Assembly (NCBI GenBank): GCA_964384945.1
Contig: CAYLMK010000004.1
Coordinates: 264,109 to 328,108, forward strand
Reading direction: 5' to 3'
DNA length: 64,000 nucleotides
From: an uncultured Thermodesulfobacteriota bacterium
GTDB taxonomy: Bacteria; Desulfobacterota; DSWW01
Part shown: positions 4,066 to 18,550 of the stretch, one piece after another
Layout: the number at the start of each line of letters is the position of its first letter
Position numbering within the stretch: the first letter of the stretch is position 1
The notes under the pieces: model-generated
The model's input: the letters and a program-made list of their open reading frames with translations, nothing else
The model's database searches: none
Told to the model about the DNA's origin: nothing
Position numbers and translations under genes: made by a program

Positions 4066-7000
4066 TCATGGGTTGCGGCCCTCTCGTGTTCCGCGGCCTT
4101 CTTCCGCATCGCCGGGACGGGCGGCGAAGGGCTCGAACAGGACGCGGGCAAGCCCGGGGTCGTCTTCGGCATGGTGGATGGCGGCCTCGACTTCCTCTGC
4201 CCGGGCGGTTCCCCAGTAGCAGTGCGGCGCGGCCAGGGGGGGGCGATCCGCAGGGTCGGCATTGAAAAGCTGGATGCCCTCGTTCCCGAAAATCCGGTTG
4301 TACTCGAAGATCATCGCTCCGTTCAGATAGACGCCTCCGCTGCCGGCAGGCGTGCCCGCCCTGTTGCGGCTCACCGTGTTCCCGCGGAACACCTCGTTCT
4401 TGATGCTCATCCCCCAGAAGTTCAGGAACACTCCGCCTCCGTGGTCGCCGCCGCAGCGGTTGTCCAGAATCCGGTTCTTCTCGAGCGAGCTGTTCGTTTC
4501 GGCGTAGACGCCGCCTCCCTCCGAAGAGCTGTTCCGGACAATTTCATTGTCCTGGATCAGGGCAAAGGTCGCAAACAGGCCGCCTCCCTTTCCCCGGGCC
4601 TCGTTGGCGAGAATGCGGTTGCCGACCATGGCGGACCGGGAGAGCCACACTCCTCCGCCGTCGCCGCCCGACCGGTTGCCCTCGATCCGGTTCCCGGACA
4701 GGTTCACCGCCGTGTTCGACCGGTAGCCGTAACCGAAAACGCCCCCTCCATCCTCGCCGGCCTCGTTCCGGAGGATCTCGTTGTTCAGGATGTAGATGAG
4801 CTGGCTCCCGTACGCGTAGATGCCCCCGCCGTTCGACGGGCTTCGATTCTCGACGATCCGGTTGTGCTCGATCCGCGCGGCCGCATCCCGGATCGAGATG
4901 CCGCTGCCTCGGTTCTTCCGGAGGACGCAGTTCGCAACCCGCGACGTTGCCCCCTCGATGAGCACCCCCATGCCGTGTTCGATGATAGAGTGCTCGAGGA
5001 GAACCGGCGCCGAGCCGGTCTCCGCCTCGCCGGGGGTTTCCGCCTCCCCCTGCGCCTGTCCATCGAAGAACAGGTGGCCCCAGGGCGACTCCGGATCCCC
5101 GGTGAAAAGGACCGGCCTCGCCGGCTCCCCGCGGGCGGCCCAGGCGCCGCGCACGCGGAAGTTCGCACCGCGCGCGATCTCCATCCTCGTGCCAGGAAGA
5201 AGCTCGACCTTCACGCCGCTCGGCACGAACACGTTTCCGGTCACCGTGTAGGTCGCGCCCCCGGACTGCCCGAAAACCGTGTCCTCTCGCAAAGGCCCCT
5301 CGACAATGTTTGGGGCCGCAGGCGGGGTACAGAAGCGCGTGGCCGCAGACCAGTCGGTCCAGTTCCCGTCCGTCCCCTGGAAGGCGACGCGCCAGGCGTA
5401 CTCCCTGCCGGGCCGCAGGACGCCCTCGGGCAGCGCAAGCGAGTCGTTCCCTCCCACAGGACCGCTGTCGAAAAGAGGCGTGGAGAAATCCACGGGGATC
5501 TCGCTGATCACCCAGCGGGCCCCGGCCCGCGATTCCTCCGCCATGTCGGCAACCGCCTGAAGCAGAAGCACGGCCTCCGCTGCAGGGTCGCATCGGTCGG
5601 GCCGGACCGCGCGAATTCCCCGTGGGGCTGTTGCGGCCTGCTCGCTTCCGGAGCCTCCGACCGGAACCGGCAGCGGCCGGGAGAGGGCGCTCTCCACGAT
5701 CTCTCCTTTCGCCTCCTCCCGGTAGGCGGACAGGCAGAACAGGGAGGCCTCGGGGGACGGCCGGGCGAGCCGGACCGAACGTTCTCGGCCGTCCAGGGCC
5801 TGTCCGGTCGCCCGGGGAGGCCCGCCTTCTCCAAACCCGTAGAGACGAAACCCGCTCACCGTCACGTCCGGCGGGTACGTCCAGCGAAGGACCCACTCCT
5901 GACCCTCCGCCTGAACGGTCAGAAAGTCCGGAGGGGGAGGAGGCGCCTCGGGAATCCAGCGTTCCCGCAGTTCGTGCCAGTCGACCAGGCCCCGTTCGGC
6001 GTCGTCGAGCCAGTCGTAGATACGCGAGATCACGACCTCCCGGTCTCGGGTCCCCCAGTAGTTCTCCCCCGCGTCCAGGTCCGGGGCCAGCCTGTGGGTC
6101 TGCACGCGCAGGGCATAGCCCAGGCTGGCCACAATGTTGTTCCGCCTGAGTTCAGGCCCGCCGGAAACCACGATGGCCTCCCCGGGCTCCTCCCCCTTCG
6201 ATCCGTTGCCGTAGAAGGTGTTCTCCTCCACCCGGCCGTCGGCGTAATAGAAGAGCCCCCCTCCCAGGAAAGGAGACGCCGTGTTGTACGCCAGGGAGTT
6301 CCCGCGGATGAGGCTCCCCTCCGAGTAGATCCCGCCCCCGCGGCCTGCCTGGTTCGACTCGATCCGGTTCTTCTCGACCCTGCCGCCCAGGGCGAAGAGC
6401 CCTCCTCCGGAATCCTCCGCCACATTGTCTGCGATCAGGTTCCCTGCCACCTCGCACCGGAACGCAACGAGTCCGCCCCCGTATCGATCACTCCGGTTCC
6501 GCCAGATTCGGTTGTTCAGGATGGACACCCTGCCCTTGTCGTATGCATAGGCATAGATCCCTCCGCCGCCGTCGCGGCCCCCGCTGGAGATATTGTGATG
6601 GACGTCGTTGCCCTCGACGACCACCTCCCGGTCCGAGTAGACGACCATGCCGCCGCCGTTCCCCGAGGTATCCTCGAGCTCGGTCGAGTTGCCGTAGATC
6701 AAGTTCCCCGCAACCCTTCCCCCGGAAAACTCCAGGCTGATCGGCGTATCGACGTTGTCGCGAAAGATCGAGGACTCGATCTGGATTTCCGTGTCCCTCG
6801 CCTTGATCCCGCGCCCTCCCTCGACGATGCAGTGCCGAAAGAGGTCGGGCTGAAGCCTGCCGTCCTCTCCCGCCTTGCCGCCGAGGCAGTCGATCTTGTC
6901 CCAGGGTTCCTTCTGCAAGGGGCGGAAGGCGATCGGACGCTCCCGGCTTCCCCGGGCGACGATGCGCCCCTGGCAGTGAATGCTCACATCCGGTCCCAAT

Positions 7001-7260
7001 CGCACCTCGACGCCCGGCTCGATCGTGAGGGTGGCCTCGGGCACGATCAGGAAAGACTCCGTGATCCGATAGGGGCTCTTGCGCTGCTTCCAGACCGTGT
7101 CCCTGTCCATGGTCTTCACGCCCAGATCCGGGGGATGGAGCAGGAGCGAGATCTTCTCGCAGGATGCGCTGAGGGCGGCCAGCAGGACCGCCGCGGCCAG
7201 GGCCCCCCGCTTCCTCCTCTTGGGGGGCCCTCCCGCCCCAACCCGGCCAGGCTTTCCCAT
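4066..7260 (-). CDS. Giant secreted lipoprotein with two right-handed parallel beta-helix (PbH1/NosD-like) domains plus Ig/FN3-like spacer, 1064 aa
   Basis: RBS GGAGG 10 nt upstream of the ATG at 7260. Signal peptide MGKPGRVGAGGPPKRRKRGALAAAVLLAALSASC contains a lipobox-like SASC. There are dozens of G-rich beta-helix rungs (GGGIYAYA, GGGLFA, NRIxxN) and two YWGT motifs (ENYWGT, HCYWGT), as in NosD/disaggregatase-like proteins. Confidence 0.8.
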   Translation of the reverse strand: MGKPGRVGAGGPPKRRKRGALAAAVLLAALSASCEKISLLLHPPDLGVKTMDRDTVWKQRKSPYRITESFLIVPEATLTIEPGVEVRLGPDVSIHCQGRIVARGSRERPIAFRPLQKEPWDKIDCLGGKAGEDGRLQPDLFRHCIVEGGRGIKARDTEIQIESSIFRDNVDTPISLEFSGGRVAGNLIYGNSTELEDTSGNGGGMVVYSDREVVVEGNDVHHNISSGGRDGGGGIYAYAYDKGRVSILNNRIWRNRSDRYGGGLVAFRCEVAGNLIADNVAEDSGGGLFALGGRVEKNRIESNQAGRGGGIYSEGSLIRGNSLAYNTASPFLGGGLFYYADGRVEENTFYGNGSKGEEPGEAIVVSGGPELRRNNIVASLGYALRVQTHRLAPDLDAGENYWGTRDREVVISRIYDWLDDAERGLVDWHELRERWIPEAPPPPPDFLTVQAEGQEWVLRWTYPPDVTVSGFRLYGFGEGGPPRATGQALDGRERSVRLARPSPEASLFCLSAYREEAKGEIVESALSRPLPVPVGGSGSEQAATAPRGIRAVRPDRCDPAAEAVLLLQAVADMAEESRAGARWVISEIPVDFSTPLFDSGPVGGNDSLALPEGVLRPGREYAWRVAFQGTDGNWTDWSAATRFCTPPAAPNIVEGPLREDTVFGQSGGATYTVTGNVFVPSGVKVELLPGTRMEIARGANFRVRGAWAARGEPARPVLFTGDPESPWGHLFFDGQAQGEAETPGEAETGSAPVLLEHSIIEHGMGVLIEGATSRVANCVLRKNRGSGISIRDAAARIEHNRIVENRSPSNGGGIYAYGSQLIYILNNEILRNEAGEDGGGVFGYGYRSNTAVNLSGNRIEGNRSGGDGGGVWLSRSAMVGNRILANEARGKGGGLFATFALIQDNEIVRNSSSEGGGVYAETNSSLEKNRILDNRCGGDHGGGVFLNFWGMSIKNEVFRGNTVSRNRAGTPAGSGGVYLNGAMIFEYNRIFGNEGIQLFNADPADRPPLAAPHCYWGTARAEEVEAAIHHAEDDPGLARVLFEPFAARPGDAEEGRGTREGRNP

Positions 7261-7356
7261 GGTATTCTCGCCTCCTCGCAAACCAGGTCCCAGGTGAAAG
7301 GGAGAAGGGCAAGGCGTCAAAGCGCAACGCAATCGACGGCCATCTGACGCCGACCT

Positions 7357-9594
7357 CTATTCGTATTCGGTCCAGTCGACCTCCGCCCCCGGCCTGACCT
7401 GCTCGATCGCCCTGTCCTCGGGCATCTCCGGAACCTTGTCCATGAACATCAGGAACAGGGTCGCATACTCGATCCACATCTCCGGATCCGGCATCCGGGC
7501 GGCACCGTCCGGCGTGTAATACACGTAAGGCATCTTCGTGCCCCGACCTGCGTAGCGGTCCGGGTTGCGCAAGAAGTTCTTGATCCAATCGTACCGCAGG
7601 CGGCCCTTGGTGAGCATCAGATTGATGGACAGATCCTCCAGCTTCACGCCCTCGGGAAGGGCGCCGTCAAAAGAGACCGGGTGGCACTGCATGCACTTGT
7701 CGGTCTTCACCCGGTATTCCCCCATCTCCAGGACCTCGGGCTCGTAGTCGTCCCGGACCGGCAGCGAGACGTAGGGGACCCGGACGGTTTCCTGGACCTC
7801 GGGATCCAGGAGCAGACGAAAGCAGGCGATGAGCGTCTCCCGTTCCTGATAGCCCAAGCCGAACTCCGGCATCCGGATCTTCAGCCACGGTCGCAGCTCC
7901 ACGGGCTTGCTCAGGTACTGGAAGAACCACTGGGGCTGCACCCGCTCCGCCTCGGCGATCAACCGGGGAGGGACCATGGATTTGAGTCCCGTGAAGCGGT
8001 CGATGCGGGGCTTGACGTCCTCTTCGAGCTGATGGCACCCGCCGCAGTTGTAATGGCTCAACATCCAGTCGCCCTTCGCAAGGGTCGATTCGTCCGGGCC
8101 AAGCTTCCGGAGATAGGATTCCGAAACGGCGTAGTCCGCGTTGTGAAGATAGTAGACCGTGAGCGACTCGATCTCGCTGTCTTCGAGCCGGTGGTCCGGC
8201 ATCTTCAGCGGCATGTCCTCGCTCGTGTAGATGTCCGGTTTGCGGATCTTGTGATAGAGCCAATCCCACTTGGTGCGGGGCACATCGGACGATCCGAAGG
8301 GAAGCTCGTCCAGCCGCTTCCCGGCCACATCTCCCACCCCCACACCGGGCAGGGGCAGCTTCTCCATGTCCCGGACGACGTGGCATCCGTAACAGCCCAT
8401 GAGCTGGACCAGCCGCTTTCCCTCCCCTGGGTCGCCCCCTTCCGGAAGATCGGCCGGCGCCGGCCCGAGGAGTTCTTCGATCTCCCCGGGTCGCAGGGAC
8501 TCGAGGTAACCGGCCAGGTCCCTTCGTTCCTCTTCGGTAAGCATGAGCCGGGGCATGGCCGTCTGGGGGTTCCACTCGGCCGGCCCTTCAAGCCAGGTGG
8601 CGACCCAGGGGCCGGAGAGCTTCAGGCCCGCTTCGAAGAGGTTCGGAACCCGATCCGTCAGGCAGGCCTCGTTCCGATCGTCGCTGTGGCAGCCCACGCA
8701 CCCCTTCTCCGTGAAGAGGCCCTTTCCGTTCCGCTGAGATGCGCGGTCGCTTCGATAGGCGACCAGCGGCTTGGGCAAGGTCCGCTGTCCCATCAGATAG
8801 GCGACGATGTGGAGAATCTCCTCCTCCTGGAGGCGGAAGGTGGGCATCCGGTTCCTGGGGCGGACGGAGGCGGGGTCCTTGATCCACCGATAGAGCCAGG
8901 CAGGCCGGGAGACCTTCTCGCCGATCCCCTCGAAAGGCGTGGACATCCGGGGAAGATCCCTTGTCATGCGGGCCTCGTGGCAGCCGTAGCATCCGTGCTC
9001 CAGGAACAGGATCCGGCCTTGCTCGGCCTTCTCGGCCCCCCGCAGGCGGTGCGGGCTTTCGTGGCACCCGAGGCAGAGCCCCTGCACGAACCTCGACGGA
9101 ACGCGCGGCAGCGGCCAGTTCTGCTCGTAGCCGTGCGCCTTCTCCGCGGTCAAGCCGACCCCCTGGCCGTGATGGCACAGGGTACAGCCGAAGCGGCCGG
9201 GCTTGTGGTCGGCCAGAATCTCGGGGGGGTGATACCGCAGGGGGTTCGCCGCGTCCCGGAACAGCGGTTCCTCCAGGGCCAGATGGCACGTCCGGCACAG
9301 ATCGCGGACCCCCGCGTCGGGCAGAAAGATCTGCTCGATCCGGGGTCCGGCCCCGTCACGGGCCTTCTCGAGCAGCCGGGACCATTTCTTCAGGGCCTCC
9401 TCGTCCCCCTCCTCGGTCGCGACCCGGAGGTTGCGCTCCACCGCCTCCCTGAACGTTCCCCTGTAGTCTCTCTGGAAGCCCTTCCACGCCTGCCTGCCCT
9501 CGGAACGAAACACCACGAGAGACACGGCGAGGCAGGCTGCCGCCAGCGGGACAAACAACATTCGCGATCTGGTTCCTGCCCGAATCGTTGCCAT
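7357..9594 (-). CDS. Octaheme c-type cytochrome, membrane-anchored (8 CxxCH motifs)
   Basis: Heme-binding motifs: CRTCH, CTLCHH, CLGCH, CYGCH, CVGCH, CYGCH, CGGCH, CMQCH. N-terminal hydrophobic anchor. Located 15 nt downstream of the cytochrome b gene. Confidence 0.85.
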   Translation of the reverse strand: MATIRAGTRSRMLFVPLAAACLAVSLVVFRSEGRQAWKGFQRDYRGTFREAVERNLRVATEEGDEEALKKWSRLLEKARDGAGPRIEQIFLPDAGVRDLCRTCHLALEEPLFRDAANPLRYHPPEILADHKPGRFGCTLCHHGQGVGLTAEKAHGYEQNWPLPRVPSRFVQGLCLGCHESPHRLRGAEKAEQGRILFLEHGCYGCHEARMTRDLPRMSTPFEGIGEKVSRPAWLYRWIKDPASVRPRNRMPTFRLQEEEILHIVAYLMGQRTLPKPLVAYRSDRASQRNGKGLFTEKGCVGCHSDDRNEACLTDRVPNLFEAGLKLSGPWVATWLEGPAEWNPQTAMPRLMLTEEERRDLAGYLESLRPGEIEELLGPAPADLPEGGDPGEGKRLVQLMGCYGCHVVRDMEKLPLPGVGVGDVAGKRLDELPFGSSDVPRTKWDWLYHKIRKPDIYTSEDMPLKMPDHRLEDSEIESLTVYYLHNADYAVSESYLRKLGPDESTLAKGDWMLSHYNCGGCHQLEEDVKPRIDRFTGLKSMVPPRLIAEAERVQPQWFFQYLSKPVELRPWLKIRMPEFGLGYQERETLIACFRLLLDPEVQETVRVPYVSLPVRDDYEPEVLEMGEYRVKTDKCMQCHPVSFDGALPEGVKLEDLSINLMLTKGRLRYDWIKNFLRNPDRYAGRGTKMPYVYYTPDGAARMPDPEMWIEYATLFLMFMDKVPEMPEDRAIEQVRPGAEVDWTEYE

Positions 9595-9609: not shown

Positions 9610-10410
9610 CTAAATCGAGAAGTAAGGCGTCGTCAGGATGTACTTCACATGGAAGAAGATCCGCAGGATGATCTTGCCCACCACGCCGAACATCAGGAGC
9701 ACGAAGGTCCACGCGACCACGTGCTTGACGACGCCCATCTTCCGAAAGAGCCGCCGGTTCGCCAAGGCCGGCAGCACGAGACCCAGGGCAAAATAGGCCA
9801 CCAGCAGTGCGAGGCCGAACCCCATCGGGAGACTCGTCAGTTCCTGTTCGGCCGTCTTGGGCACGGCCCAGTCCTCCCAGGGCCAGTAGAACTGCCAATT
9901 CGGGCCGCGAAGAAACTGGCCGATGAAGATCAGAACGAACCACATGAGGTATCCGAACAGGAAGAGGGGCACCACGAGGGGCCGCTCGCGGAGGCCGTAC
10001 TTGCCCACGCCCTTGGGGTTCGGATCGAGGTAGGGAAGAAGCGCGAGCCCGAGGATGATGAGCAGCGGCGCGCCTACGCCGGCGATCCAGGGGTCGAAAT
10101 AGACCAGCAAATCCTGAAGGCCCACGAAGTACCAGGGCGCCTTGGCCGGGTTCTCGGTCCAGTTCGGGTCCGCGACGGCCTTGAGCGGGGCGTCGACCTT
10201 GTACGACCAGACGATCAGGACCAGCGTGGCCGCCAGAACGGCGAGGAGCTCCTTGAAGGCGAGGTCCGGGAAGGCGAAAACCTCCTCACTCCGCCCCGCA
10301 TCTTCGCTTGCGTTCTTCTGTCCCATCCGTTTTTCCGATTCAATCGCCGACAACTGAGCGTCCCCCGGCTGTTGGCTTTTGGCTCTGAGCCCGTACCCCC
10401 TCCCCACCAT
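9610..10410 (-). CDS. Cytochrome b C-terminal half (subunit IV/PetD-like) of a split cytochrome b
   Basis: PWYF motif (APWYFVGLQDLL), equivalent to PEWY of PetD. Three transmembrane helices. The start is ambiguous: TTG at 10452 (12 nt after the upstream stop), ATG at 10410, or ATG at 10326. None has a good SD sequence. The middle ATG is reported. Confidence 0.7.
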   Translation of the reverse strand: MVGRGYGLRAKSQQPGDAQLSAIESEKRMGQKNASEDAGRSEEVFAFPDLAFKELLAVLAATLVLIVWSYKVDAPLKAVADPNWTENPAKAPWYFVGLQDLLVYFDPWIAGVGAPLLIILGLALLPYLDPNPKGVGKYGLRERPLVVPLFLFGYLMWFVLIFIGQFLRGPNWQFYWPWEDWAVPKTAEQELTSLPMGFGLALLVAYFALGLVLPALANRRLFRKMGVVKHVVAWTFVLLMFGVVGKIILRIFFHVKYILTTPYFSI

Positions 10411-10464: not shown

Positions 10465-11220
10465 TCACAACGCCCTCGACATGCCTCCGTCCTTTCGCAC
10501 CCTCCAGAAGTGGACGAACATCAGCAGGCCTGCCACGAACGGAAGGAGCACACAGTGAAGCACGTAGAAGCGAAGAAGGGCGCTGGCCCCCACGTCGGAG
10601 TCTCCCAGCAGAAGGAAACGCATATCGTTGTCCGGGTGGATGCCGAACCACTCGTGGAAAGGGCCGTCCGACCCGAGAAAGGGCGTGGCGGCGGCCATCT
10701 TCGTCCCCACCGTGATGGCCCACAGCGCGATCTGATCCCAGGGGAGAAGATAGCCGGTGAAGCTCAACAAGAGCGTAACCACCAGCAGCATGACGCCCAC
10801 CACCCAGTTGAACTCCCGCGGGGGCTTGTACGAGCCGGTCAGAAAGACCCGCAGCATATGCAGCATGACGAGCAAAACCATCGCATGGCCCGCCCACCGG
10901 TGCATGTTCCTCAAGAACATGCCGAACCGAACCGTGTGCTCGAGAAGCTTCATGTCCAGATAGGCGTACTCGGGCACGGGACGGTAATAGAACATGAGGA
11001 GGATGCCGGTCACTGTCTCCGCGAGGAACATGAAGAAGGTCAGCCCCCCGAGACAAAAGGAGTAGCGCAGCCGGAGGGTCTCCCGGGGAAGGGTGACCGG
11101 ATGAAGGTGCAGAATCGAGTTGGAGACGATCGCAAGGGCCCGGTTCCGCGGCGTGTCCTCGAAGCGGTGCCGGAAGATGGATCGCCAAAGCTGCGACTCT
11201 GTGATTCTTTTCCACGCCAT
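10465..11220 (-). CDS. Cytochrome b/b6 N-terminal half (heme b-binding, quinol-interacting)
   Basis: [32 protein letters not shown] is the hallmark cytochrome b N-terminal segment. Conserved His residues in helices B and D. Internal ATG chosen, 11 nt after the upstream stop. Confidence 0.85.
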
Positions 11221-11231: not shown

Positions 11232-11936
11232 TCAGGCTGTCAGCAGGGTCTGGAGGTAGGCGTACTCCCCGGCGAGGAAGCGGCAGGTGAACTTGACCAG
11301 TTCCCGGTAGAAGAGGATCGCCTCCCGGCACGCATCCTCGGGGAGCCGCTCCACGATCTGCTCCAGCCTCTCCAGGGCCTTGTTCATCCAGAAAAGCGGG
11401 TGCCTCTCCAGGAAGTCCCGCTCGGCACGGCGGTACCCGGCCGGGTCCGAGCCCGTCTGCATGGCCTGGACCTCCTTGAAGGTCAGGTAGTGAAGGAACT
11501 CCATCTCCAGGCAGACGTGATCCGGACGTTCGTCCTGGGCGCCCTCCGCATAGCTCAGCCCGAAGTGGTTGTAAAACAGGATAAGCTCCTTGAGCACGAC
11601 CTTCCGGTCCTCTCTCCAGGCGCCCTCCACCAGCGGGCAAGGCGGGCCGCCCGGCCCGGATTCGAAGAGACGGATGAACTCCACCTCGATCTGCTCATCC
11701 TCGAGCCGGGACGGAAGACGCAGGCCCTTCCGCTCGCCCTCCTCCAGAGAAAACGGATAGGGAAGCCGGGCCAGCAGGATTTCAAGGGCCTCTGCGAGCT
11801 CGCCCTGCCTTGCCTGCCGGCGGAAGGAGGCATCCGGATACCGGTAGGCCTCGGCCAGGATCGCATACAGCCGGCTCCGGTTTCCCGAGCGTTTCTCCGT
11901 GTCGGTCTCGAGCGGTCTGCTCCGGATGTCTTCCAT
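11232..11936 (-). CDS. TorD/NarJ-family redox-enzyme maturation chaperone (delta subunit, EbdD/NarJ-like)
   Basis: [22 protein letters not shown] is the TorD-family core. The ATG at 11936 lies 5 nt after the beta-subunit stop. The remaining upstream part of the ORF is low-complexity. Confidence 0.75.
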
Positions 11937-11941
11937 GCTGT

Positions 11942-13084
11942 CTACGCCTGGGACGGTTTTGGAGGGAGCCTTTGCAACAGGGCCGGGTCCTTGGTGAAGG
12001 GCTCGAACATCTTGCCCCACTCCCTGGCAATCAGGATGTCCATCAGCTCCGACTTGCCCCCGCCGCGAACCTTCTTCATCTCGCTCTGCATGGTCTCCAG
12101 GGCCCTGTCCACCTCGGGCCCGAAGAGATAACGCAGGTAGGCCGTCGGAATGCGCGGCTTGGTGGTGTCGATCTTCCCGGTCTCGTCGAGCCTCGGCGGA
12201 GCCAGAGGAGGAACGTAAAACACATTCGGTTCGGTTCCGTATTCCGGGTGGAGGGGCAGCGCGACCTTCCAAACCTTCACGAGTTTGTGGATCGGCCCTT
12301 TTTCATCGTCCAGGAAGCCAAGGAACCGTACGCGGCCCGTGCACTGCCTGGCGCAGGCGGTTGCCACCTCCTGCTCGAGACGCGGGTAACAGAAGATGCA
12401 CTTCATGCTCGTCTTCGTGACGAAGTTGAAATAGATCACCTTGTACGGGCAGGCCTCCAGGCAGAACCGGTAGCCCTTGCACCGGTCCTGGTCGATCACG
12501 ACCGCGCCGTCCTCTTCCCGCTTGTAGATCGCGTTGCGCGGACAGGCATCGATGCAGGCCGCGTATGTGCAGTGGTTGCAGATGCGGGGAAGGTAGAAGT
12601 AGAAGGCGTTCGGGTATTTCCCGCCTCCCTGGTCCTCATCCCAGTTCATGGACCAGTCCGGCTCCGTTCCGTCCGGGTTGCGGGCCTGCAGGTGCTTCTC
12701 TCCCGCCTGGGAGGAGAATACCTCCTCATAGTTGAATTTCCAGAGATCCCCGAAGTCCTTCCGCGTGGGCAGCTCCCCGCGCACCGGGTCCCTGACCTTC
12801 CCGCCGAAGAGCACCTGGTACCCGCCGCCCTTGCGCTCCCAGTCCTTGGGAGACCCTTTCCCGGGCTGTGTGTTCACTTTGTTCCACCACATGTATTCCC
12901 GACCCTCAAGCTGGGTCCAGAGGGACTTGCACGCCATCGAGCAGAGCTGGCATCCGATGCATTTGTTCAGGTCCATCACCATGGCAACCTGGCGCTTGCA
13001 CTCGCGCAGCGTCTCCTTGGCGGCCTGAAACTCCAGGGCGAGTTCCTTTTCCCGTTCGGTCAGCTGTTTCTCGTCAACCGGCAT
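11942..13084 (-). CDS. Type II DMSO-reductase-family molybdoenzyme beta subunit (NarH/EbdB-like, 4 Fe-S clusters)
   Basis: RBS AGGAGAAG upstream of the ATG at 13084. Motifs: VMDLNKCIGCQLCSMACK, EYMWWNKV, CNHCTYAACIDACP, CKGYRFCLEACP, CIFCYPRLEQEVATACARQC. Confidence 0.9.
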   Translation of the reverse strand: MPVDEKQLTEREKELALEFQAAKETLRECKRQVAMVMDLNKCIGCQLCSMACKSLWTQLEGREYMWWNKVNTQPGKGSPKDWERKGGGYQVLFGGKVRDPVRGELPTRKDFGDLWKFNYEEVFSSQAGEKHLQARNPDGTEPDWSMNWDEDQGGGKYPNAFYFYLPRICNHCTYAACIDACPRNAIYKREEDGAVVIDQDRCKGYRFCLEACPYKVIYFNFVTKTSMKCIFCYPRLEQEVATACARQCTGRVRFLGFLDDEKGPIHKLVKVWKVALPLHPEYGTEPNVFYVPPLAPPRLDETGKIDTTKPRIPTAYLRYLFGPEVDRALETMQSEMKKVRGGGKSELMDILIAREWGKMFEPFTKDPALLQRLPPKPSQA

Positions 13085-13146: not shown

Positions 13147-13830
13147 TCAAACTTCCACCACGAGCCCCATCCACTCCTTGCTGAACGCCTTGACCCCTCC
13201 CCGTTCTCCGTTGGCGCCCTCCCAGGCGGCAAAACCGACCGTGAGGTCCTTCGCGCCCGGTTGGAGATTCACGGCCTCTTCGGCGACCGTGAGCGGGCGT
13301 CCGATGATCACGCACCACTTGCCCTGCTTCCAGTCCGAACAGGAGACGAGCGACGACTGGTCGGTGTAGAGGGAGGTCGCGAGCCCCCGGGCCACCTGGT
13401 TCTTGGGCTTCTCCTTGAAATCGGGCCTCCAGTACCAGCTGTTCGTGGGGTAGTCGTGGGAGCCCATCTCCTTGATCTGGGTCTTCTCCGGGTCCTTGAA
13501 GGGGAGCAGCACGGCGACGCCGTCCGGGAAGGTGCCGATGTCGCCGATCTCGAGGTTGGGCGCCTGGCTGTTCCATTCGATGTGGAAGAAGATCTCCTTC
13601 CCGTTGTGCACCGCCTTCACCTCGATCTCCTTGACCGCGCCGATCTTGGTCTCGTCAAAGGTTGCCTTGATATACGGCGAGGGCTGGTTGGCCAGGGGTG
13701 TCGCGCCCATCTCGATCCGATGTCCGTTCATGCCGGCCCAAACCGGAGCCTTGCAGTTCAGAAGCTCCTGGTGGGAAGCGGACACCTTCCTGACGATCAC
13801 GCTTTCCAACTTCTTTGCTTCCTCCGGCAT
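13147..13830 (-). CDS. Putative gamma subunit (EbdC/DdhC-like EB_dh heme-b domain protein), 227 aa, no obvious signal peptide
   Basis: Strong RBS AAGGAGG 8 nt upstream of the ATG at 13830 (MPEEAKK). Resembles ethylbenzene dehydrogenase gamma from memory (APVWAG, AVHNGKEIFFHIEW, NSWYWRPD, GANGERGGVKAFS). The ORF-track GTG start at 13914 is not favoured. Confidence 0.65.
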   Translation of the reverse strand: MPEEAKKLESVIVRKVSASHQELLNCKAPVWAGMNGHRIEMGATPLANQPSPYIKATFDETKIGAVKEIEVKAVHNGKEIFFHIEWNSQAPNLEIGDIGTFPDGVAVLLPFKDPEKTQIKEMGSHDYPTNSWYWRPDFKEKPKNQVARGLATSLYTDQSSLVSCSDWKQGKWCVIIGRPLTVAEEAVNLQPGAKDLTVGFAAWEGANGERGGVKAFSKEWMGLVVEV

Positions 13831-14026: not shown

Positions 14027-14029
14027 TTG

Positions 14030-16942
14030 CTACGTCTTCTTCACCTCCACGGCAATCGCGCGGTCGACCGGCTGCAGACACCAGTTCCACCGGTAGTAGT
14101 TCAGGTGACCGTATCCGGCTGCCAGATCCAGCCACTTGATCATCCCCGGGATGGCCGTGTCATAGCTCTTCCACTCCTTGAACATGAAGGGCTCCCAGGC
14201 ATGGTAGATGATTACCTGTCCGGGAGAGGTCCCCTTGCCGGGCCGGGCCGCCGGGCTCACCTTCACATGGATCCGGAACTCGTCGAAGTCGTTCCAGACC
14301 CTCACCAGATCCCCGTCCCGGATTCCCCGCTTTTCGGCATCCTCGGGATTCATGAACATGAACGGCCGCCCCTGATGGGTCCGCATGAGCTGCTCGTCCG
14401 TGATCCAGATGGAATGCACGCTCCAGCGCAGATGCCCGCTGGTCAGGGTCAGGGGATAGTTCCCTCCCATCTTCGGGTTGGGCTTGTGCACGGGCATCTG
14501 TTCGCCGGCCTCGAGGTGCCACGGGTGATCCAGGTAGAATTGCAGCCGCCGGTTGTAGGTGGGATAGGGGAGCTTCTTCGAGCCCGTGTGCCAGGTAAGC
14601 GGCACGATCGGCTCGTCGGGCTTGATGTCTGTGGCCAGGTGCATGGTGATCGGATCGAAGATCGACAGCCCGACAAAACGAACGATGCCCTCTTCGCGCA
14701 TCTTTGCCAGATTGGTTCCTTGCGGAAGGTTGCCCATCATCACGCTCGTCTCCAGGGCGTCTTCCATGATCTCTTCCAGGTTGCTGCAGCCCATGGCCTG
14801 CTTCTCTCGCAGGTTCTCGAGATCGACCTTTCGGCCGCTTCGAAGCTGGAACTCGGTCTTGCCCCTCTTCCGGGCCTCCTGTTCGATCTTGCCGGCGAGC
14901 ATCACGCAGATCTCCCACTCGTTCTTGGCCTCGCCGGGAGGCTCGACCGCCTTGTCCGTCAGCGTCAGCCAGGGAACATGGGGCGTGGGAAAGCGGGTGT
15001 CGAGCTTTTCGTAGAAGCCGGCGCAGGGCAACACGTAGTCGGAGTAGAGAACCGTCGTGCTCCAGCGGGTCTCGAAACCGAAGACGAGCTTGTACTTCTT
15101 CCAGAGGCTGGGCAGTATGTTCTTGTTCCAGCCCCGGTTTTTCCGCGCAGGGCTGGTGCCGATGTAGAAATAGACCGTGGGCTCCTGGTCCGCATAGGGC
15201 AGGGCAAAGCCCTCCCACCACTTTTTTTCCAGGGCCTCCTTCATGTACTCCGGGAATTCGCGCTTCATGGTGGGGCAGTGCCATTCCCTCCTGTCCCAGG
15301 CATCCTTGTACCCGGAATGGAAATAGTAGAGGAAGGCCGGCGGAACCATCGTGTATTCCGTACGGTTTCGCTCCCGCTCGAGCAGCACCGAGAGCATCTC
15401 GTCCGTCCGGGTCGGGTCTTCCGCCTTGAACCGGTTCACGATCCGCTTCTCCTGGGCCAGCCGGAGAGTCGCGCCCAGGGGTCCCCTCTTGGACTTGATG
15501 GCCTGGAAGAGGGCCCCCTCGAACAGGGATTCGTTCCAGCCCCGGATCCCGCTTCCCTTCCTTCCGTAACTGCCGGTCAGGGCCAGAAGAAGGCACATGG
15601 CCCGCTCGATCAGATCTCCATGATAGTACTTGCACGCGTTCCATCCCACCAGCACCTGGATGTGAGGCTTGGCCTTGGCGCACTTCTCGGCAAGGCGGCG
15701 GATCGTGTCCGGGTGGGTTGCACAGTGCGGGGAGGCCTTCTCGGGCGTGTAGTGCCGGTCGAGCTGCTCCTTCAGGAGCGCGAAGGACGGCCGCACCTCG
15801 GCCTGCCCGCCGTCAAGCAGCTTCACGATGAAGGTCCCCTCCAGGGCCGGGTCCACGGGCAGCTTGAGCGTGTCCAGCGGGGCCTTTACGGGGCCCCCTT
15901 TGGCCGCATCCCAAAAATAGAACTGGTCGTCCCGTCCGCCCTGCTCCAGATCCGCAACCCGGAGAAACCGGCCCGTGTCCGTTCGGACCAGCAGGGGAAG
16001 ATCGGTCTGCTCTTTGATGAAGGGGATGTCGATCCAGCCTTTCTCGATCAGCACCTGGCAGACGGCGAGCCCGAGGGCCGCGTCCCCGCCCGGCTCCACG
16101 GGCACCCACTCGTCGGCGTGCATCGCGCTCGGCGAGTAGTCCGGCGCGATCGTCACCACCTCGGCGCCGTTGTACCGCGAAGAGGCGATGAAGTGATAGG
16201 AGGGGATCCGGGTGTAGACCGGGTTCATGTGCCAGATGAGCAGCAGCTTTCCAAAGAACCAGCCGTCCACGGAGTCCATGAACTGAAACTTGCCCACGCT
16301 CTGGTAGATCCCGCGGTTGAAGTCCCCGATCGTGGAGTCCAGATCCAGGGAGGTGCCGCCGAGAAAGTTGAGCAGCCGCGAGGCAGGGATCAGATTCAGG
16401 TATCCTCCGTTTCCCGGGCCTGTCTCGTTGATGATCGACTCGGGGCCCTGGGACTCCAGGCCGTCGAGGATCCCGGAGGCGATCTCGGAGAGGCACTCGT
16501 CCCAGCTCAGCCTCTTCCACTTCCCGCTGCCGCGCTCGCCCACCCGCTTCATCGGGTACTTGAGCCGGTCCGGGTTGTACATCATGTGGCTGTAGAAGGC
16601 CCCCTTCTGGCACCCCCGGGGGTTGAAGTCCGGGCCGGTCGGGTCCACCACCGGGTACTTGGCCGCCTGCTCCTCCCGGAAGACCACCCCGTCCTTTGTG
16701 TAGACGCGCCAGAGGCAGTTTCCCGGGTAACAGTCCACCAGGTGCGTCCCGTACGTCACCTTGTCCCAGGTCCATTCCTTCCTGTGCAGGTCTTCCCACC
16801 TGGCGTAGTCCCACTCCTGGACGACCTTCTCCGTGGCGCAAGCATTGCCCCCCAGGAAACCCAAGGATCGCAAGGAGAGCATCAGCGCGGAAGCGCCCGA
16901 AACCTGAAGAAACTGTCTCCGGTCAAGCTTGATCCCCTCCAT
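14030..16942 (-). CDS. Type II DMSO-reductase-family molybdopterin oxidoreductase alpha subunit, Tat-exported (NarG/EbdA/NxrA-like)
   Basis: RBS AGGAGG upstream of the ATG at 16942. Twin-arginine signal MEGIKLDRRQFLQVSGASALM. FS0 motif HLVDCYPGNCLWRVY...PRGCQKG (H-x3-C-x3-C-xn-C). RLKYPMKR as in NarG. Its ATG overlaps the ferredoxin stop (TGATG). Confidence 0.9.
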   Translation of the reverse strand: MEGIKLDRRQFLQVSGASALMLSLRSLGFLGGNACATEKVVQEWDYARWEDLHRKEWTWDKVTYGTHLVDCYPGNCLWRVYTKDGVVFREEQAAKYPVVDPTGPDFNPRGCQKGAFYSHMMYNPDRLKYPMKRVGERGSGKWKRLSWDECLSEIASGILDGLESQGPESIINETGPGNGGYLNLIPASRLLNFLGGTSLDLDSTIGDFNRGIYQSVGKFQFMDSVDGWFFGKLLLIWHMNPVYTRIPSYHFIASSRYNGAEVVTIAPDYSPSAMHADEWVPVEPGGDAALGLAVCQVLIEKGWIDIPFIKEQTDLPLLVRTDTGRFLRVADLEQGGRDDQFYFWDAAKGGPVKAPLDTLKLPVDPALEGTFIVKLLDGGQAEVRPSFALLKEQLDRHYTPEKASPHCATHPDTIRRLAEKCAKAKPHIQVLVGWNACKYYHGDLIERAMCLLLALTGSYGRKGSGIRGWNESLFEGALFQAIKSKRGPLGATLRLAQEKRIVNRFKAEDPTRTDEMLSVLLERERNRTEYTMVPPAFLYYFHSGYKDAWDRREWHCPTMKREFPEYMKEALEKKWWEGFALPYADQEPTVYFYIGTSPARKNRGWNKNILPSLWKKYKLVFGFETRWSTTVLYSDYVLPCAGFYEKLDTRFPTPHVPWLTLTDKAVEPPGEAKNEWEICVMLAGKIEQEARKRGKTEFQLRSGRKVDLENLREKQAMGCSNLEEIMEDALETSVMMGNLPQGTNLAKMREEGIVRFVGLSIFDPITMHLATDIKPDEPIVPLTWHTGSKKLPYPTYNRRLQFYLDHPWHLEAGEQMPVHKPNPKMGGNYPLTLTSGHLRWSVHSIWITDEQLMRTHQGRPFMFMNPEDAEKRGIRDGDLVRVWNDFDEFRIHVKVSPAARPGKGTSPGQVIIYHAWEPFMFKEWKSYDTAIPGMIKWLDLAAGYGHLNYYRWNWCLQPVDRAIAVEVKKT

Positions 16943-17226
16943 CAAGGCCCTCCTTTCCCGGTGGTTGCGGCCCGAATCGGCCCCTCGGCCCTCACCAGGC
17001 GAATGGCGTCCCAGGGGCACCCGAAGATGCGGGATCCCCTGGGGCCCCGCGCCACACAAGCGCCGCAGCCCGTGCAGAGGGCCGGATCCGCCTCCACCCT
17101 CTTGAATGGAAAATGATCCGCGTCCTCGATCAGCCGAAGGGCTCCTTGGGGGCAGTAGATCCGGCAGACGGGCCTGCCCCCGCAGCCCGTGCATCCCTCC
17201 GAGACGAAAGCTACCCGCGTCTGCAT
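16942..17226 (-). CDS. 2x[4Fe-4S] ferredoxin
   Basis: CTGCGGRPVCRIYCP and CTGCGACV...GCPWDAI are two CxxCxxC...CP cluster motifs. Its stop overlaps the alpha-subunit start. Confidence 0.8.
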   Translation of the reverse strand: MQTRVAFVSEGCTGCGGRPVCRIYCPQGALRLIEDADHFPFKRVEADPALCTGCGACVARGPRGSRIFGCPWDAIRLVRAEGPIRAATTGKGGP

Positions 17227-17249: not shown

Positions 17250-17840
17250 CTACGTCAGCTCGATGTAGGCCTTCTTCTGTTCGAATTCGCGGGCCGTCAG
17301 CACGACCCGTGTGTCCACCAGGATTCTCTCTTCACTGTCCAGGCTGATCTTCAGGCGGTCCAGCGGACGGGGCGCCGGGCCCGCGAACTCCGTTCCGTCG
17401 GAATGAAACTCGCTGCCGTGGCAGGGACACTTGAAGATTCGCATTCCGGGAAACCAGTTGACCGTGCAGCCGAGATGGGTGCATCGGGCGAACAGCGCAT
17501 AAATCCTTCGGGCCTCGCGCACGACGAAGAAGCGGTGCGCCTGTTTGAAGCGGCTGTCGATGGAGATCACCCCATGGGCATCGGCAGGCTCGGTGGAGAG
17601 GAAATCCTCGATCCGGCCGATCTCGAAGACGCTGGGAGGATGGAAGACCACGGAAGGGAAGAAGAACCGGACGGTCTGGTAGGTCCCGGCGCCGATTCCG
17701 ACGGCAAGGGCGCCCCATCCCGCGACCGAAATCCCCTTCTGAAGAAATTCCCTGCGGGAGGACGCCCCGGCCTTTCCCGTCGGTTCGGGTGCGGGTTCCG
17801 TAACCATCTCGGGCTGGAGGAAAGAGGACCCTTTGCTCAT
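17250..17840 (-). CDS. Rieske [2Fe-2S] iron-sulfur protein, Tat-exported
   Basis: RBS AGGAG upstream of the ATG at 17840. Tat motif SRREFLQKG. Rieske boxes CTHLGC and CPCHGS. Its ATG overlaps the MerR stop (ATGA). Confidence 0.85.
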   Translation of the reverse strand: MSKGSSFLQPEMVTEPAPEPTGKAGASSRREFLQKGISVAGWGALAVGIGAGTYQTVRFFFPSVVFHPPSVFEIGRIEDFLSTEPADAHGVISIDSRFKQAHRFFVVREARRIYALFARCTHLGCTVNWFPGMRIFKCPCHGSEFHSDGTEFAGPAPRPLDRLKISLDSEERILVDTRVVLTAREFEQKKAYIELT

Positions 17841-18550
17841 CCCAGCTCCTGGGTGATCCTGCGCACCATCCGCCGGTGGAGGATCGGCAGGATCTTGTTC
17901 AGGGCATGGATCGCATCCTGGGCGAGCCTCTGGATCTGGGCCGGGCTCATCCCCTTGCGCACGATTCGTTTCGTGAAGATCTCGATCTCTTTGCGTGCCA
18001 GGAATTCCATGAGATCGAGGTGGATCTGGAGATGCTCCACCTGGAAATCGAGTTCTTCGTTCAGGCCGATCTCCTTGATCTCGCTCAGGATCTCCACAAT
18101 CTGCACACACTCGGGGTCGAACCGGCCTTCCGCGTCCGTCTCGATCATGCCCATCGACTCCAGGGCCTGGATCTGCTTCGGTTCCACCCCTGTGCGTTCG
18201 CAAAGCTCCTCCCGGCTCATCGGCTGGGCGTCGTCCCCCAGAAGCGAGTCCTCGAAAAGGGGCCTGTCCATCTCCCGGAGAAGCTGCCGCTGCTCCCCGT
18301 TGAGGGCCGGCCCCTGGGCCCCCACGATCATCTTGATGACGCTCAGAGGAAGGAAGCGCTTCTTCTGGAGGTCCTTGATCGCCCGGATGCGCTCGATGTA
18401 GCTCTCATCGTAGTAGGCCATGTTCCTGTGGGTCTTCAAGGGCTTGGGGAGGATCCCTTTCTGTACGTAGTAGCGGATCGTACCCCCGCTGACCCCGGTG
18501 GCGTGGGACAGTTGCTGCATCTTGAGCAGCCTTTTGTTCTTGGCGGGCAT
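17837..18550 (-). CDS. MerR-family transcriptional regulator (first gene of the operon)
   Basis: N-terminal HTH LSHATGVSGGTIRYYVQKGILP. The start may be M1 (18550) or M11 (18520). Its stop overlaps the Rieske start. Confidence 0.8.
   Translation of the reverse strand: MPAKNKRLLKMQQLSHATGVSGGTIRYYVQKGILPKPLKTHRNMAYYDESYIERIRAIKDLQKKRFLPLSVIKMIVGAQGPALNGEQRQLLREMDRPLFEDSLLGDDAQPMSREELCERTGVEPKQIQALESMGMIETDAEGRFDPECVQIVEILSEIKEIGLNEELDFQVEHLQIHLDLMEFLARKEIEIFTKRIVRKGMSPAQIQRLAQDAIHALNKILPILHRRMVRRITQELG

Follow-up and report, generated by a model that had tools for sequence, protein, structure and literature searches.

The gene at 14030..16942 (−) of the window, by which we mean the whole 64,000-nucleotide stretch of contig CAYLMK010000004.1 analysed in this study, encodes the alpha subunit of a type II (NarG-like) DMSO reductase family enzyme. 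Its sequence, the motifs of its active site and the order of the surrounding genes clearly mark the protein as an orthologue-type relative of AhyA, the catalytic subunit of the putative anaerobic alkane hydroxylase AhyABC. The enzyme adds a member to an already known candidate family and does not represent a new enzyme type. Our preferred reading, to which we assign a probability of roughly 0.6, is that the cluster encodes an AhyABC-type periplasmic, oxygen-independent molybdenum hydroxylase of the ethylbenzene dehydrogenase (EBDH) branch, which would act on an alkane, be co-exported by Tat and deliver its electrons along the path proposed below. The labels given to this gene in source databases (ethylbenzene dehydrogenase, nitrate reductase and 'selenocysteine-containing dehydrogenase') are wrong, and AhyA-like is the name that annotation should use.

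Gene content and reading frames of the cluster

The alpha, beta, gamma and delta genes lie in one gene string, flanked by the genes of a Rieske/cytochrome b module. The features of the cluster, and the sites within alpha referred to below, are as follows:

4066..7332 (−): large beta-helix (NosD/CASH-like) protein with a hydrophobic N-terminal segment (PF13229, PF05048)
7357..9594 (−): membrane-anchored octahaem cytochrome c, 745 aa (eight CxxCH motifs, Cytochrom_C Pfam match, collinear in all loci)
9610..10326 (−): subunit-IV-like membrane protein, 238 aa (weak ExtQ match, hydrophobic segments, APWY motif, collinear in all loci)
10465..11220 (−): cytochrome b6-type subunit, 251 aa, four transmembrane helices (PF00033, ExtP model)
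11232..11936 (−): delta, NarJ/TorD-type assembly chaperone, 234 aa (PF02613, TIGR03482)
11942..13084 (−): beta, four Fe-S clusters, 380 aa, without signal peptide (TIGR03478, Fer4_11, Cys groups in the sequence)
13147..13830 (−): gamma, haem b (EB_dh domain), 227 aa, without signal peptide (PF09459, TIGR03477, EbdC model)
14030..16942 (−): AhyA-type alpha, 970 aa, Mo-bisPGD catalytic subunit with Tat leader and FS0 cluster (ORF, Pfam, TIGR03479, EbdA model, 2ivf_A, AhyA references)
15629..15631 (−): Lys438 of alpha in KYYHGD, equivalent of EBDH Lys450 (alignment; invariant in 37 homologues)
16322..16324 (−): Asp207 of alpha in STIGDFNRG, predicted Mo ligand (aligned with EBDH Asp223 and PcrA Asp170; invariant in 37 homologues)
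16415..16417 (−): Pro176 of alpha in the loop GPGNGGY, at the position of EBDH His192 (alignment to EbdA; same loop in the AhyA references)
16610..16744 (−): FS0 [4Fe-4S] ligands His67, Cys71, Cys76 and Cys111 of alpha (aligned with EbdA His82, Cys86, Cys92 and Cys127)
16904..16924 (−): twin-arginine motif DRRQFLQ, residues 7-13 of alpha, followed by a hydrophobic region and A-C-A/TEK at about residues 35-40 (sequence)
16942..17226 (−): small 2x[4Fe-4S] ferredoxin-like gene, 94 aa (sequence; conserved; without annotation in the source record)
17250..17807 (−): Rieske [2Fe-2S] protein, 185 aa, with its own twin-arginine motif SRREFLQ (JGI call with PF00355, Pfam, b6f PetC-like)
17837..18550 (−): MerR-family regulator directly upstream of the cluster (PF13411)

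The alpha ORF is complete in translation, running on the minus strand from the ATG at 16942 to the stop codon at 14032-14030. A longer ORF from an ATG at 17194 was rejected as its start: homologues begin at the MEGIK-equivalent residue, and the 5' extension is a frame shadow of the conserved small ferredoxin gene and thus not a true alpha start. The long plus-strand ORF at 14027-17116 was likewise rejected, as its codon-position GC of 0.85/0.44/0.60 is an antisense-frame pattern; the true alpha frame gives 0.61/0.45/0.84. The stop codon of the ferredoxin gene overlaps the alpha ATG by 1 nt (TGATG). This small gene directly follows the Rieske gene in 25 of the 26 ahy-type loci with a close Rieske homologue, its differences from locus L001 fall 16/12/36 by codon position, and gene calls for it exist in the Hxd3-type locus and in loci L081-L083.

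For gamma, a AAAGGAGG ribosome-binding site stands ahead of the ATG at 13830, and the JGI annotation places the start at 13878; Met122 and Lys214 of the protein align with the haem b ligands Met108 and Lys201 of EbdC. Beta exceeds the TIGR03478 cut-off (505.5 vs 480.7 bits), and delta narrowly misses that of TIGR03482 (143.5 vs 152.3 bits). The cytochrome b6-type subunit scores 271 bits against the ExtP model (cut-off 290) and carries His107/121 and His222/237 together with the CLGG Cys, while the octahaem cytochrome c has one N-terminal hydrophobic segment (JGI start 9561). The beta-helix gene ends many clusters: it lies downstream in the Hxd3-type locus, in L053 and in the window and Poribacteria-type clades. 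Upstream, both of these clades keep the MerR gene in the same orientation, and its product is a possible regulator of the cluster. Overall, the cluster order of the window recurs in at least 20 Desulfobacterota loci. Genes for a FadL-type porin, a long-chain acyl-CoA ligase and Etf lie 10-18 kb away, and the window yielded neither an alcohol dehydrogenase nor a ketone carboxylase gene.

Family placement and active site of the alpha subunit

The first-pass annotation had described the protein as a NarG-like (type II) catalytic subunit, a placement that the profile and fold searches bear out. Both Pfam domains exceeded their cut-offs (Molybdopterin, PF00384, 132.5 bits, 2.4e-38; Molydop_binding, PF01568, 57.7 bits, 1.4e-15), and TIGR03479 matched end to end (profile positions 1-913) with 915.1 bits and an E-value of 4.7e-275, slightly under its curated cut-off of 984.75. 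The EbdA equivalog NF042978 gave 809.8 bits, far short of its cut-off of 2000, and the narG equivalog gave 229.7 bits in four fragments against a cut-off of 1084. The nearest solved relative is the EBDH alpha subunit 2ivf_A (759 bits, 9.8e-227, residues 7-969), followed by PcrA (470 bits, 31% identity). The structure model of alpha had a pLDDT of 80.5, with low confidence in the N-terminal 52 residues, as expected for a leader; the fold search with it returned TM-scores (query/target) of 0.88/0.93 for EBDH, 0.80/0.87 for PcrA, 0.74/0.58 for NarG and 0.72/0.63 for NxrA. Type I/III enzymes and formate dehydrogenases stayed at or below 216 bits in the profile searches and 0.60 (query-normalised) in the fold search, so that a placement outside type II is not indicated. 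The length of 970 aa, vs about 1,245 in NarG, the conserved Tat leader and the EBDH fold also agree with the earlier suggestion of a periplasmic enzyme of the EBDH/pNar/periplasmic-Nxr clade. In a neighbour-joining tree, which has no bootstrap and a single characterised reference, the window alpha groups with both AhyA references, apart from the EbdA and Chloroflexi clades, and sits in a sister clade of uncultured Thermodesulfobacteriota.

Compared with EBDH (EbdABC of Aromatoleum aromaticum, PDB 2IVF), alpha shows full-length homology at about 38-40% identity, and the two systems have in common the FS0 motif, the Asp Mo ligand, Lys450, a Tat leader on alpha only, a NarJ-type delta and a leaderless gamma with Met/Lys haem b ligands. 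They differ in gene order, which is alpha-gamma-beta-delta in the window and alpha-beta-gamma-delta in the ebd operon, and in the dedicated Rieske/cytochrome b complex, which ebd operons lack. PcrAB and the Ser/Clr/Ddh group share with the window alpha the type II fold, the FS0 cluster, the Asp Mo ligand and the periplasmic location, which is predicted for the window alpha; the gamma subunits of Ser, Clr and Ddh, however, have Sec leaders, unlike the leaderless gamma of the window.

The FS0 motif recorded in the first reading was recovered as HLVDCYPGNC (residues 67-76) followed by PRGCQKG (Cys111), in the arrangement H-x3-C-x4-C...C, and all four ligands are invariant in 37 homologues; RLKYPMKR was located at residues 126-133. 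The alignment of the Mo-binding region points to Asp207 as the residue that would coordinate molybdenum. His192, the proposed catalytic base of EBDH, is absent from the window alpha, where the alignment places Pro176. The same His192-to-Pro replacement, with Asp223 and Lys450 retained, has been reported for ahyA sequences (PMC7803848), and the published AhyA residue signature is present in the aligned window alpha. Three residues past the Mo-ligand Asp, the alignment shows a conserved Arg/Lys that, if it faced the active site, would suit an anionic substrate. Phe164, Tyr165 and Trp461 form an aromatic gate in PcrA, and PDB entry titles name Phe164 and Trp461; Phe164 and Tyr165 are not conserved in the window alpha, which has Leu201 and Asp202 at these positions.

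Resemblance to AhyABC and the candidate substrate

The alpha subunit of Desulfococcus sp. 4484_241 (OQX63933.1) and the Hxd3-type AhyA of locus L079 are 71% and 69.7% identical to the window alpha, respectively, both over the full length. AhyABC has been described as a putative C2-methylene hydroxylase for alkanes in the sulfate reducer Desulfococcus (Desulfosudis) oleovorans Hxd3, whose AhyA (WP_012173623.1) is 84.69% identical to OQX63933.1 (PMC7803848). The L079 alpha shows the identical value of 84.69% to OQX63933.1, and the L079 cytochrome b was also found on a Desulfosudis oleivorans contig. At 970 aa, the window alpha is shorter than the AhyA references (991-993), as it lacks some 20 residues that are inserted in them around position 700. 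The three active-site loops GPGNGGY, STIGDFNRG and KYYHGD equal those of the AhyA references at every group-constant position. In addition, the window and L079 have ten genes in the same order (Rieske, ferredoxin, alpha, gamma, beta, delta, cytochrome b6-like, subunit-IV-like, octahaem cytochrome c and beta-helix), with 43-76% identity between the collinear pairs; unlike in the Hxd3-type locus, MoaA, TatA, MoeA and acyl-CoA dehydrogenase genes do not adjoin the window cluster. The first reading had left the specificity unknown, which was too pessimistic given that identity, residue signature and gene order make the protein AhyA-type; the AhyA assignment is itself putative. An AhyA HMM is included in CANT-HYD (PMC8767102).

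That the enzyme would be a hydroxylase is suggested by EBDH, its closest characterised relative, which is one. Many related genomes also encode several alpha paralogues, as orphans or in tandem and as many as five or six per genome, and such multiplicity is the pattern of substrate-diversified hydroxylases. The FadL-type porin, acyl-CoA ligase and Etf genes near the cluster point the same way. Counting against the preferred reading are the alpha scores below the TIGR03479 and EbdA cut-offs, the loss of His192, the conserved Arg/Lys near the Mo ligand and the lack of alcohol dehydrogenase and ketone carboxylase genes in the window. An n-alkane is the most likely substrate of the window enzyme. 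Sources of the relatives include a tar biofilm, Guaymas Basin and MAGs from the deep subsurface, and the assignment of alkanes to AhyA in the literature draws on genomics, metabolite patterns and a conference-abstract proteome in which the Hxd3 enzyme was implicated during alkane growth.

It is unlikely, in our estimation, that the same periplasmic EBDH-like dehydrogenase or hydroxylase acts physiologically on some other hydrophobic or alkyl-bearing compound in place of an n-alkane, such as a lipid, an alkyl-aromatic, the side chain of an isoprenoid or steroid, or a small molecule like dimethyl sulfide. The substrates hydroxylated by characterised members of the branch differ widely, the paralogue numbers imply many substrates family-wide, and the clade extends beyond oil sites to groundwater Poribacteria-type and Abyssubacteria MAGs. 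In papers up to August 2026, no in vitro hydroxylation of n-alkanes was reported for any AhyA. The agreement of the active-site loops with the Hxd3 and 4484_241 references and the collinearity of the cluster nevertheless argue against a separate substrate, since with both matching, the window enzyme probably does whatever the Hxd3 AhyA does. Hxd3, in turn, lacks a fumarate-adding glycyl radical enzyme yet uses C12-C20 alkanes for growth, which again favours the alkane as substrate.

Predicted export, proposed electron path and possible direction of the Rieske/cytochrome b module

The twin-arginine leader of alpha was reported in the first-pass annotation and is confirmed here. It reads L-D-R-R-Q-F-L-Q, followed by the hydrophobic stretch VSGASALMLSL and by A-C-A before TEK. 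All full-length clade members carry x-R-R-x-F-L-K/Q at the same position, and the hydrophobic region and an A-x-A site are conserved across the clade. No signal peptide is found in the beta sequence, in gamma or in any gamma homologue, none of which has room for a leader. Because both partners lack a signal peptide, the entire alpha-beta-gamma complex probably leaves via Tat; the proposal that beta is a Tat hitchhiker is thereby kept and refined, the cargo being beta plus gamma.

In the proposed mechanism, alpha, beta and gamma would receive their cofactors in the cytoplasm, aided by delta, and would then be exported together to the periplasm by Tat using the alpha leader. Once there, Mo(VI)=O would abstract a hydrogen from a methylene group of the hydrophobic substrate, for which an n-alkane is the likeliest candidate, and a hydroxyl from water would yield a secondary alcohol. 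The two electrons would pass from Mo to FS0, on through FS1-4 to haem b and from there to the co-encoded octahaem cytochrome c. As a more speculative step, the Rieske/ferredoxin/cytochrome b6-type complex could run in reverse, powered either by the proton-motive force or by a low-potential donor oxidised at the same time, and would place the high-potential electrons in the menaquinone pool, as an anaerobe without a high-potential terminal acceptor would need.

The potential of menaquinone is about -74 mV. For EBDH, reported values are +256 mV for haem b, +259 mV for Mo(VI/V) and +30 mV for the substrate couple, with cytochrome c as the probable acceptor (PMC8840923). Because of this difference, transfer from cytochrome c to menaquinone is uphill. 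We tentatively entertain, as a possibility we would not bet on, that an AhyABC-type hydroxylase is hard-wired across several phyla to a five-subunit Rieske/cytochrome b6-type complex (Rieske, 2x[4Fe-4S] ferredoxin-like, cytochrome b, enlarged subunit IV and octahaem cytochrome c) running in reverse and lifting electrons of about +250 mV into menaquinone. The drive might be the proton-motive force, or confurcation in which the ferredoxin-like subunit gives a low-potential electron at the quinone site. If true, this would account for the ability of sulfate reducers and other low-potential anaerobes to afford Mo-dependent alkane activation. The conserved link to a dedicated Rieske/cytochrome b complex, including the missed 94-aa ferredoxin gene, is the most interesting feature of the locus.

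The module could also be read in the opposite direction, with electrons flowing from menaquinol through Rieske/cytochrome b and the octahaem cytochrome c to gamma, beta and alpha, and on to a high-potential oxyanion or oxide (nitrate, chlorate, perchlorate or selenate, for instance), as in periplasmic Nar, Ser, Clr and Pcr. PcrA as second-closest structure and the conserved basic residue near the Mo ligand are compatible with such a respiratory reductase, and in other loci the same module is found beside multihaem cytochromes without an EBDH-like gene, where it presumably oxidises quinol. The haloarchaeal periplasmic Nar is a quinol-fed reductase whose Tat-exported type II alpha-beta is likewise encoded with Rieske (NarB) and cytochrome b (NarC) genes; the window differs from it in its EBDH-like alpha and in a module that adds the small ferredoxin, the subunit-IV-like protein and the octahaem cytochrome c. 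We nevertheless hold the reductase to be quite improbable: alpha is clearly closer to EBDH than to any reductase (759 vs 470 bits; 39% vs 31% identity), Leu201/Asp202 replace the PcrA residues Phe164/Tyr165, and multiple orphan or tandem alphas per genome are unusual for respiratory reductases. Hxd3 is not known to respire oxyanions of this kind, which also counts against it. That the Tat leader is vestigial, as in cytoplasmic NarG, with the enzyme remaining in the cytoplasm, or that the gene is an inactive relic, is hardly credible despite the Asp, rather than Ser/Thr, before the arginine pair, as the clade keeps the hydrophobic region and A-x-A site, the ORF and all cofactor ligands are intact, size and fold fit periplasmic enzymes and not the 1,245-aa NarG, and the co-encoded Rieske protein, with its own Tat motif, and the anchored octahaem cytochrome c face the periplasm.

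The AhyABC-type hydroxylase that we favour concerns oxygen-independent hydroxylation, the least understood route of anaerobic alkane activation, which rests on a single cultured organism. With about 25 collinear relatives, the candidate enzyme occurs widely among uncultured Desulfobacterota and in other phyla, and across these relatives the active-site loops are almost fixed and the complete Rieske/cytochrome b/cytochrome c module is nearly always present. The locus therefore offers a testable answer to an energetic puzzle, namely where high-potential electrons would go in an organism without a high-potential acceptor.

Organization of the alpha gene and its cluster

The gene for alpha, the molybdenum catalytic subunit, occupies an intact open reading frame on the minus strand, from an ATG at 16942 to a stop codon at 14032-14030, and encodes 970 aa. 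These are the limits proposed in the first-pass annotation, and all the motif strings quoted there were found in the translation: DRRQFLQ (residues 7-13), HLVDCYPGNC (67-76), PRGCQKG (containing Cys111) and RLKYPMKR (126-133). A longer alpha starting at an ATG at 17194, with an 84-codon 5' extension, was rejected as the shadow of a ferredoxin gene in another frame. In the comparison with the related locus L001, the extended alpha frame scored 55 bits versus 129 bits for the overlapping ferredoxin frame; third-position differences in the extension track the ferredoxin frame and not the alpha frame, and alpha homologues begin at the residue equivalent to MEGIK. A plus-strand open reading frame at 14027-17116 was likewise discarded, its codon-position GC pattern being that of an antisense frame. 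All genes of the cluster lie on the minus strand and, with the exception of the ferredoxin, match JGI gene calls (the window derives from metagenome 3300043177, contig Ga0484859_0000007, 395 kb).

Genes of the alpha cluster, in order of transcription
18550-17837, minus: MerR-family regulator
17807-17250, minus: Rieske protein with its own SRREFLQ motif, b6f PetC-like
17226-16942, minus: ferredoxin-like open reading frame, 94 aa, 2x[4Fe-4S]; stop codon overlaps the alpha ATG (TGATG)
16942-14030, minus: alpha
13830-13147, minus: gamma, EB_dh haem b domain; AAAGGAGG ribosome-binding site
13084-11942, minus: beta; TIGR03478 at 505.5 bits, exceeding the cut-off of 480.7
11936-11232, minus: delta, NarJ/TorD-type chaperone
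11220-10465, minus: cytochrome b6-type protein, 4 TM helices, His107/121 and His222/237, CLGG cysteine; ExtP model 271 bits
10326-9610, minus: subunit-IV-like membrane protein, APWY motif
9594-7357, minus: octahaem cytochrome c, eight CxxCH motifs, one N-terminal anchor
7332-4066, minus: beta-helix (NosD/CASH-like) protein, 1,088 aa, parallel beta-helix with a hydrophobic N-terminal segment

The ferredoxin-like gene is absent from the source annotation and is translationally coupled to alpha through the TGATG overlap. The 300-nt gap between the Rieske and alpha genes is protein-coding; an Rfam scan of the whole window returned no match, including for a possible Moco riboswitch in this gap, and a promoter and terminator scan of 3300-19200 gave counts equal to the shuffled expectation. 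The beta-helix protein ends the cluster and holds the same position in the Hxd3-type locus described below and in several clades.

Family placement and active site of alpha

Pfam analysis identified molybdopterin oxidoreductase and dinucleotide-binding domains in alpha. The top NCBIfam model was TIGR03479 (type II DMSO reductase alpha subfamily), which matched end to end at 915 bits, a little below its cut-off of 985, followed by the equivalog for EbdA, the alpha subunit of ethylbenzene dehydrogenase (EBDH), at 810 bits, far below its cut-off of 2000. Other models scored lower (narG 230, dmsA/ynfE 216, and formate dehydrogenase, Tor, Nap and Arr less still). Among solved structures, EBDH alpha (2ivf_A) scored 759 bits over residues 7-969, compared with 470 for PcrA, 191 for NarG and 158 for Kuenenia NxrA. 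An AlphaFold2 model built on a 37-sequence alignment (pLDDT 80.5, pTM 0.84, with the cofactor-binding loops as its low-confidence parts) superposed best on EBDH (TM 0.88/0.93), followed by PcrA (0.80/0.87), NarG (0.74/0.58) and NxrA (0.72/0.63), while type I/III enzymes and formate dehydrogenases reached at most 0.60 (query-normalised). Since profile scores, structure matches and TM values all favour type II, the NarG-like placement proposed from the sequence holds. Filing alpha as EBDH, PcrA or NarG itself was rejected on curated scores and residues.

A closer affiliation is given by AhyA, the alpha subunit of the putative anaerobic alkane C2-methylene hydroxylase. Two ahyA references have been named, WP_012173623.1 from Desulfococcus (Desulfosudis) oleovorans Hxd3 and OQX63933.1 from Desulfococcus sp. 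4484_241 (PMC7803848). OQX63933.1 shares 71% identity with the window alpha over its full length. The related locus L079 encodes the very cytochrome b homologue that is labelled Desulfosudis oleivorans, and its 993-aa alpha is 84.69% identical to OQX63933.1. This value equals the 84.7% reported between the Hxd3 protein and OQX63933.1 (PMC7803848), and we therefore took L079 as the Hxd3-type ahy locus. Its alpha is 69.7% identical to that of the window, and ten genes are collinear between the two loci, with identities of 62% for the Rieske protein, 54% for the ferredoxin, 62% for gamma, 73% for beta, 43% for delta, 76% for cytochrome b, 58% for subunit IV, 47% for the octahaem cytochrome and 43% for the beta-helix protein. 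The same gene order is kept in at least 20 Desulfobacterota loci and one Poribacteria-type clade; a variant, alpha-gamma-beta-delta-Rieske-ferredoxin-cytochrome b, occurs in two loci (L040 and L053). A neighbour-joining tree of 105 alphas, computed without bootstrap and with one characterised reference, places the window's Thermodesulfobacteriota clade together with both AhyA references, at a greater distance from EbdA and the Chloroflexi clades. Nearest to alpha in sequence, at 96-60% identity, are proteins of uncultured Thermodesulfobacteriota, Desulfosudaceae, Abyssubacteria, Poribacteria and Lindowbacteria, with Chloroflexi sequences next at about 50%.

The active-site residues lead to the same family. 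The His/Cys cluster read in the first-pass annotation as FS0 was borne out, as its ligands align with those of EbdA and, together with Asp207 (EbdA Asp223) and Lys438 (EbdA Lys450), are invariant in 37 homologues. Where EBDH has its proposed base, His192, the window alpha instead carries Pro176 within the loop GPGNGGY; ahyA sequences have Pro at His192 and retain Asp223 and Lys450 (PMC7803848), an exact match to the window pattern. The loops GPGNGGY, STIGDFNRG and KYYHGD are identical among the window alpha and both AhyA references, and three residues past Asp207, the predicted Mo ligand, stands a conserved basic residue, Arg210 in the window alpha and Lys in the Poribacteria-type clade. The initial reading of a NarG-like enzyme is thus upheld and can be sharpened: the gene encodes an AhyA-type alpha, an added member of a known candidate family that is itself biochemically unproven.

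Wider neighbourhood and paralogues

About 10-18 kb from the locus, a minus-strand block at 27432-35866 carries genes for fatty-acid activation and electron transfer, starting with a FadL/OmpP1-type outer-membrane channel and continuing with a long-chain acyl-CoA ligase, a CCG-domain Fe-S oxidoreductase, EtfA, EtfB and a FadR-like TetR regulator. The channel shows a weak C-terminal match to the alkane uptake protein AupA, and the block would be consistent with a role in the breakdown of lipids or hydrocarbons. A member of the PFL2/glycerol-dehydratase family of glycyl radical enzymes (24869-27394, plus; TIGR01774 631 bits, cut-off 678) resembles dehydratase/lyase-type models, its best named match being sulfopropanediol dehydratase (545 bits), and its hits included no succinate-synthase (Bss/Ass) model. 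The genes at 20709-24074 (minus) encode a Bacillus-type SdhCAB succinate dehydrogenase/fumarate reductase with a dihaem cytochrome b558, which suggests a menaquinone-based membrane. Only the two closest relatives share synteny for the glycyl radical enzyme and succinate dehydrogenase genes, which were dropped as a functional clue.

Elsewhere, a B12-binding domain fused to a URO-D-like (MtaA/MtbA-type) methyltransferase domain (50839-52749, minus) has as neighbours a SAM-type methyltransferase and a TetR regulator; this may be a corrinoid-dependent methyl transfer system. Two long open reading frames, 437-2233 (plus, 598 aa) and 57820-59175 (plus, 451 aa), show the GC3 bias of coding sequence and gave no Pfam hit at E <= 1e-6. 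The remainder of the window is housekeeping.

Many related genomes carry several orphan or tandem alphas, up to four in a row, with one gamma-beta-delta set (Poribacteria-type, Dehalococcoidia, Anaerolineae and Myxococcales; loci L021-L032, L035-L037, L044, L051, L056-L058 and L077), an arrangement similar to that of multi-alpha steroid C25 dehydrogenase systems. An orphan alpha is also present in the window's nearest relative MAG (L002, 83% identical).

Export, electron transfer and the Rieske/cytochrome b module

The twin-arginine leader noted at first reading is present in alpha, and its position and form (L-D-R-R-Q-F-L-Q, a hydrophobic stretch, then A-C-A followed by TEK) are conserved across the clade. 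Beta has no signal peptide, as had been stated, and gamma also lacks a leader, with a stop codon a few codons 5' of the conserved domain in every homologous locus. EBDH gamma is likewise leaderless: the EbdC chain in the crystal structure has 214 residues, as does the NCBIfam model for EbdC, and both align from residue 3-4; Met122 and Lys214 of the window gamma are the retained equivalents of the EbdC haem b ligands. The Rieske protein, with its Tat motif, and the anchored octahaem cytochrome c are oriented towards the periplasm. Delta would thus assist the assembly of alpha, beta and gamma, which would then be exported jointly on the alpha leader.

The cofactor-binding residues and subunit set are those of an EBDH-type enzyme. 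By analogy with EBDH, Mo(VI)=O would attack a C-H bond with oxygen derived from water, and two electrons would exit through FS0, FS1-4 and haem b. The same type of enzyme acting on another hydrophobic substrate is a plausible alternative to an alkane hydroxylase, because the substrate assignment is putative for every AhyA and the family is rich in paralogues. An oxyanion reductase fed by quinol is disfavoured, as scores and TM values clearly prefer EBDH over PcrA and the PcrA gate residues Phe164 and Tyr165 are replaced by Leu201 and Asp202 in alpha. A vestigial leader or relic gene is unlikely given the clade-wide leader and the invariant cofactor-binding residues.

The AhyA-type enzyme is accompanied by a recurrent five-gene module, consisting of the Rieske protein, the ferredoxin, the cytochrome b6-type protein, a subunit IV of enlarged size and a multihaem cytochrome c some 735 aa long, with its parts in the window at 7357-11220 and 16942-17807 (minus). 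The ferredoxin, which has no signal peptide, directly follows the Rieske gene in 25 of the 26 ahy-type loci with a close Rieske homologue, and remains beside it where gene order differs. The cytochrome b shows at least 70% identity across its best 120 database matches, including MAGs labelled Binatia, Kryptonia and Acidoferrales, and retains the CLGG cysteine, the residue to which haem ci is bound in complexes of the b6f type; the module subunit IV has APWY in place of the usual PEWY. Elsewhere, the module follows three or four tandem EBDH-like alphas or lies between two EBDH-like systems (L082). The 10 kb flanking the module on either side in L083 contain no EBDH-like gene, nor does the downstream flank in L081, whose contig ends at the module; in these two loci it adjoins c7-type, NHL and PKD multihaem cytochromes and presumably oxidises quinol.

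Menaquinone has a potential of about -74 mV. For EBDH, potentials of +256 mV for haem b, +259 mV for Mo(VI/V) and +30 mV for the substrate couple have been reported, and a cytochrome c is its probable electron acceptor (PMC8840923). Speculatively, an anaerobe without a high-potential acceptor would have to pass such electrons back to menaquinone, uphill, and the presence of a complete, tightly linked Rieske/cytochrome b/cytochrome c complex would fit that complex working in reverse. As the module forms an independent unit, also found without an EBDH-like gene, reverse electron flow here is put forward as a proposal. We found no discussion of Ahy in connection with a Rieske/cytochrome b complex in the searchable literature, although the review by Heider et al. 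2016 may cover it. Of these findings, the one most worth pursuing is that an AhyA-type enzyme is coupled, in a conserved manner, with a dedicated Rieske/ferredoxin/cytochrome b6/octahaem complex.
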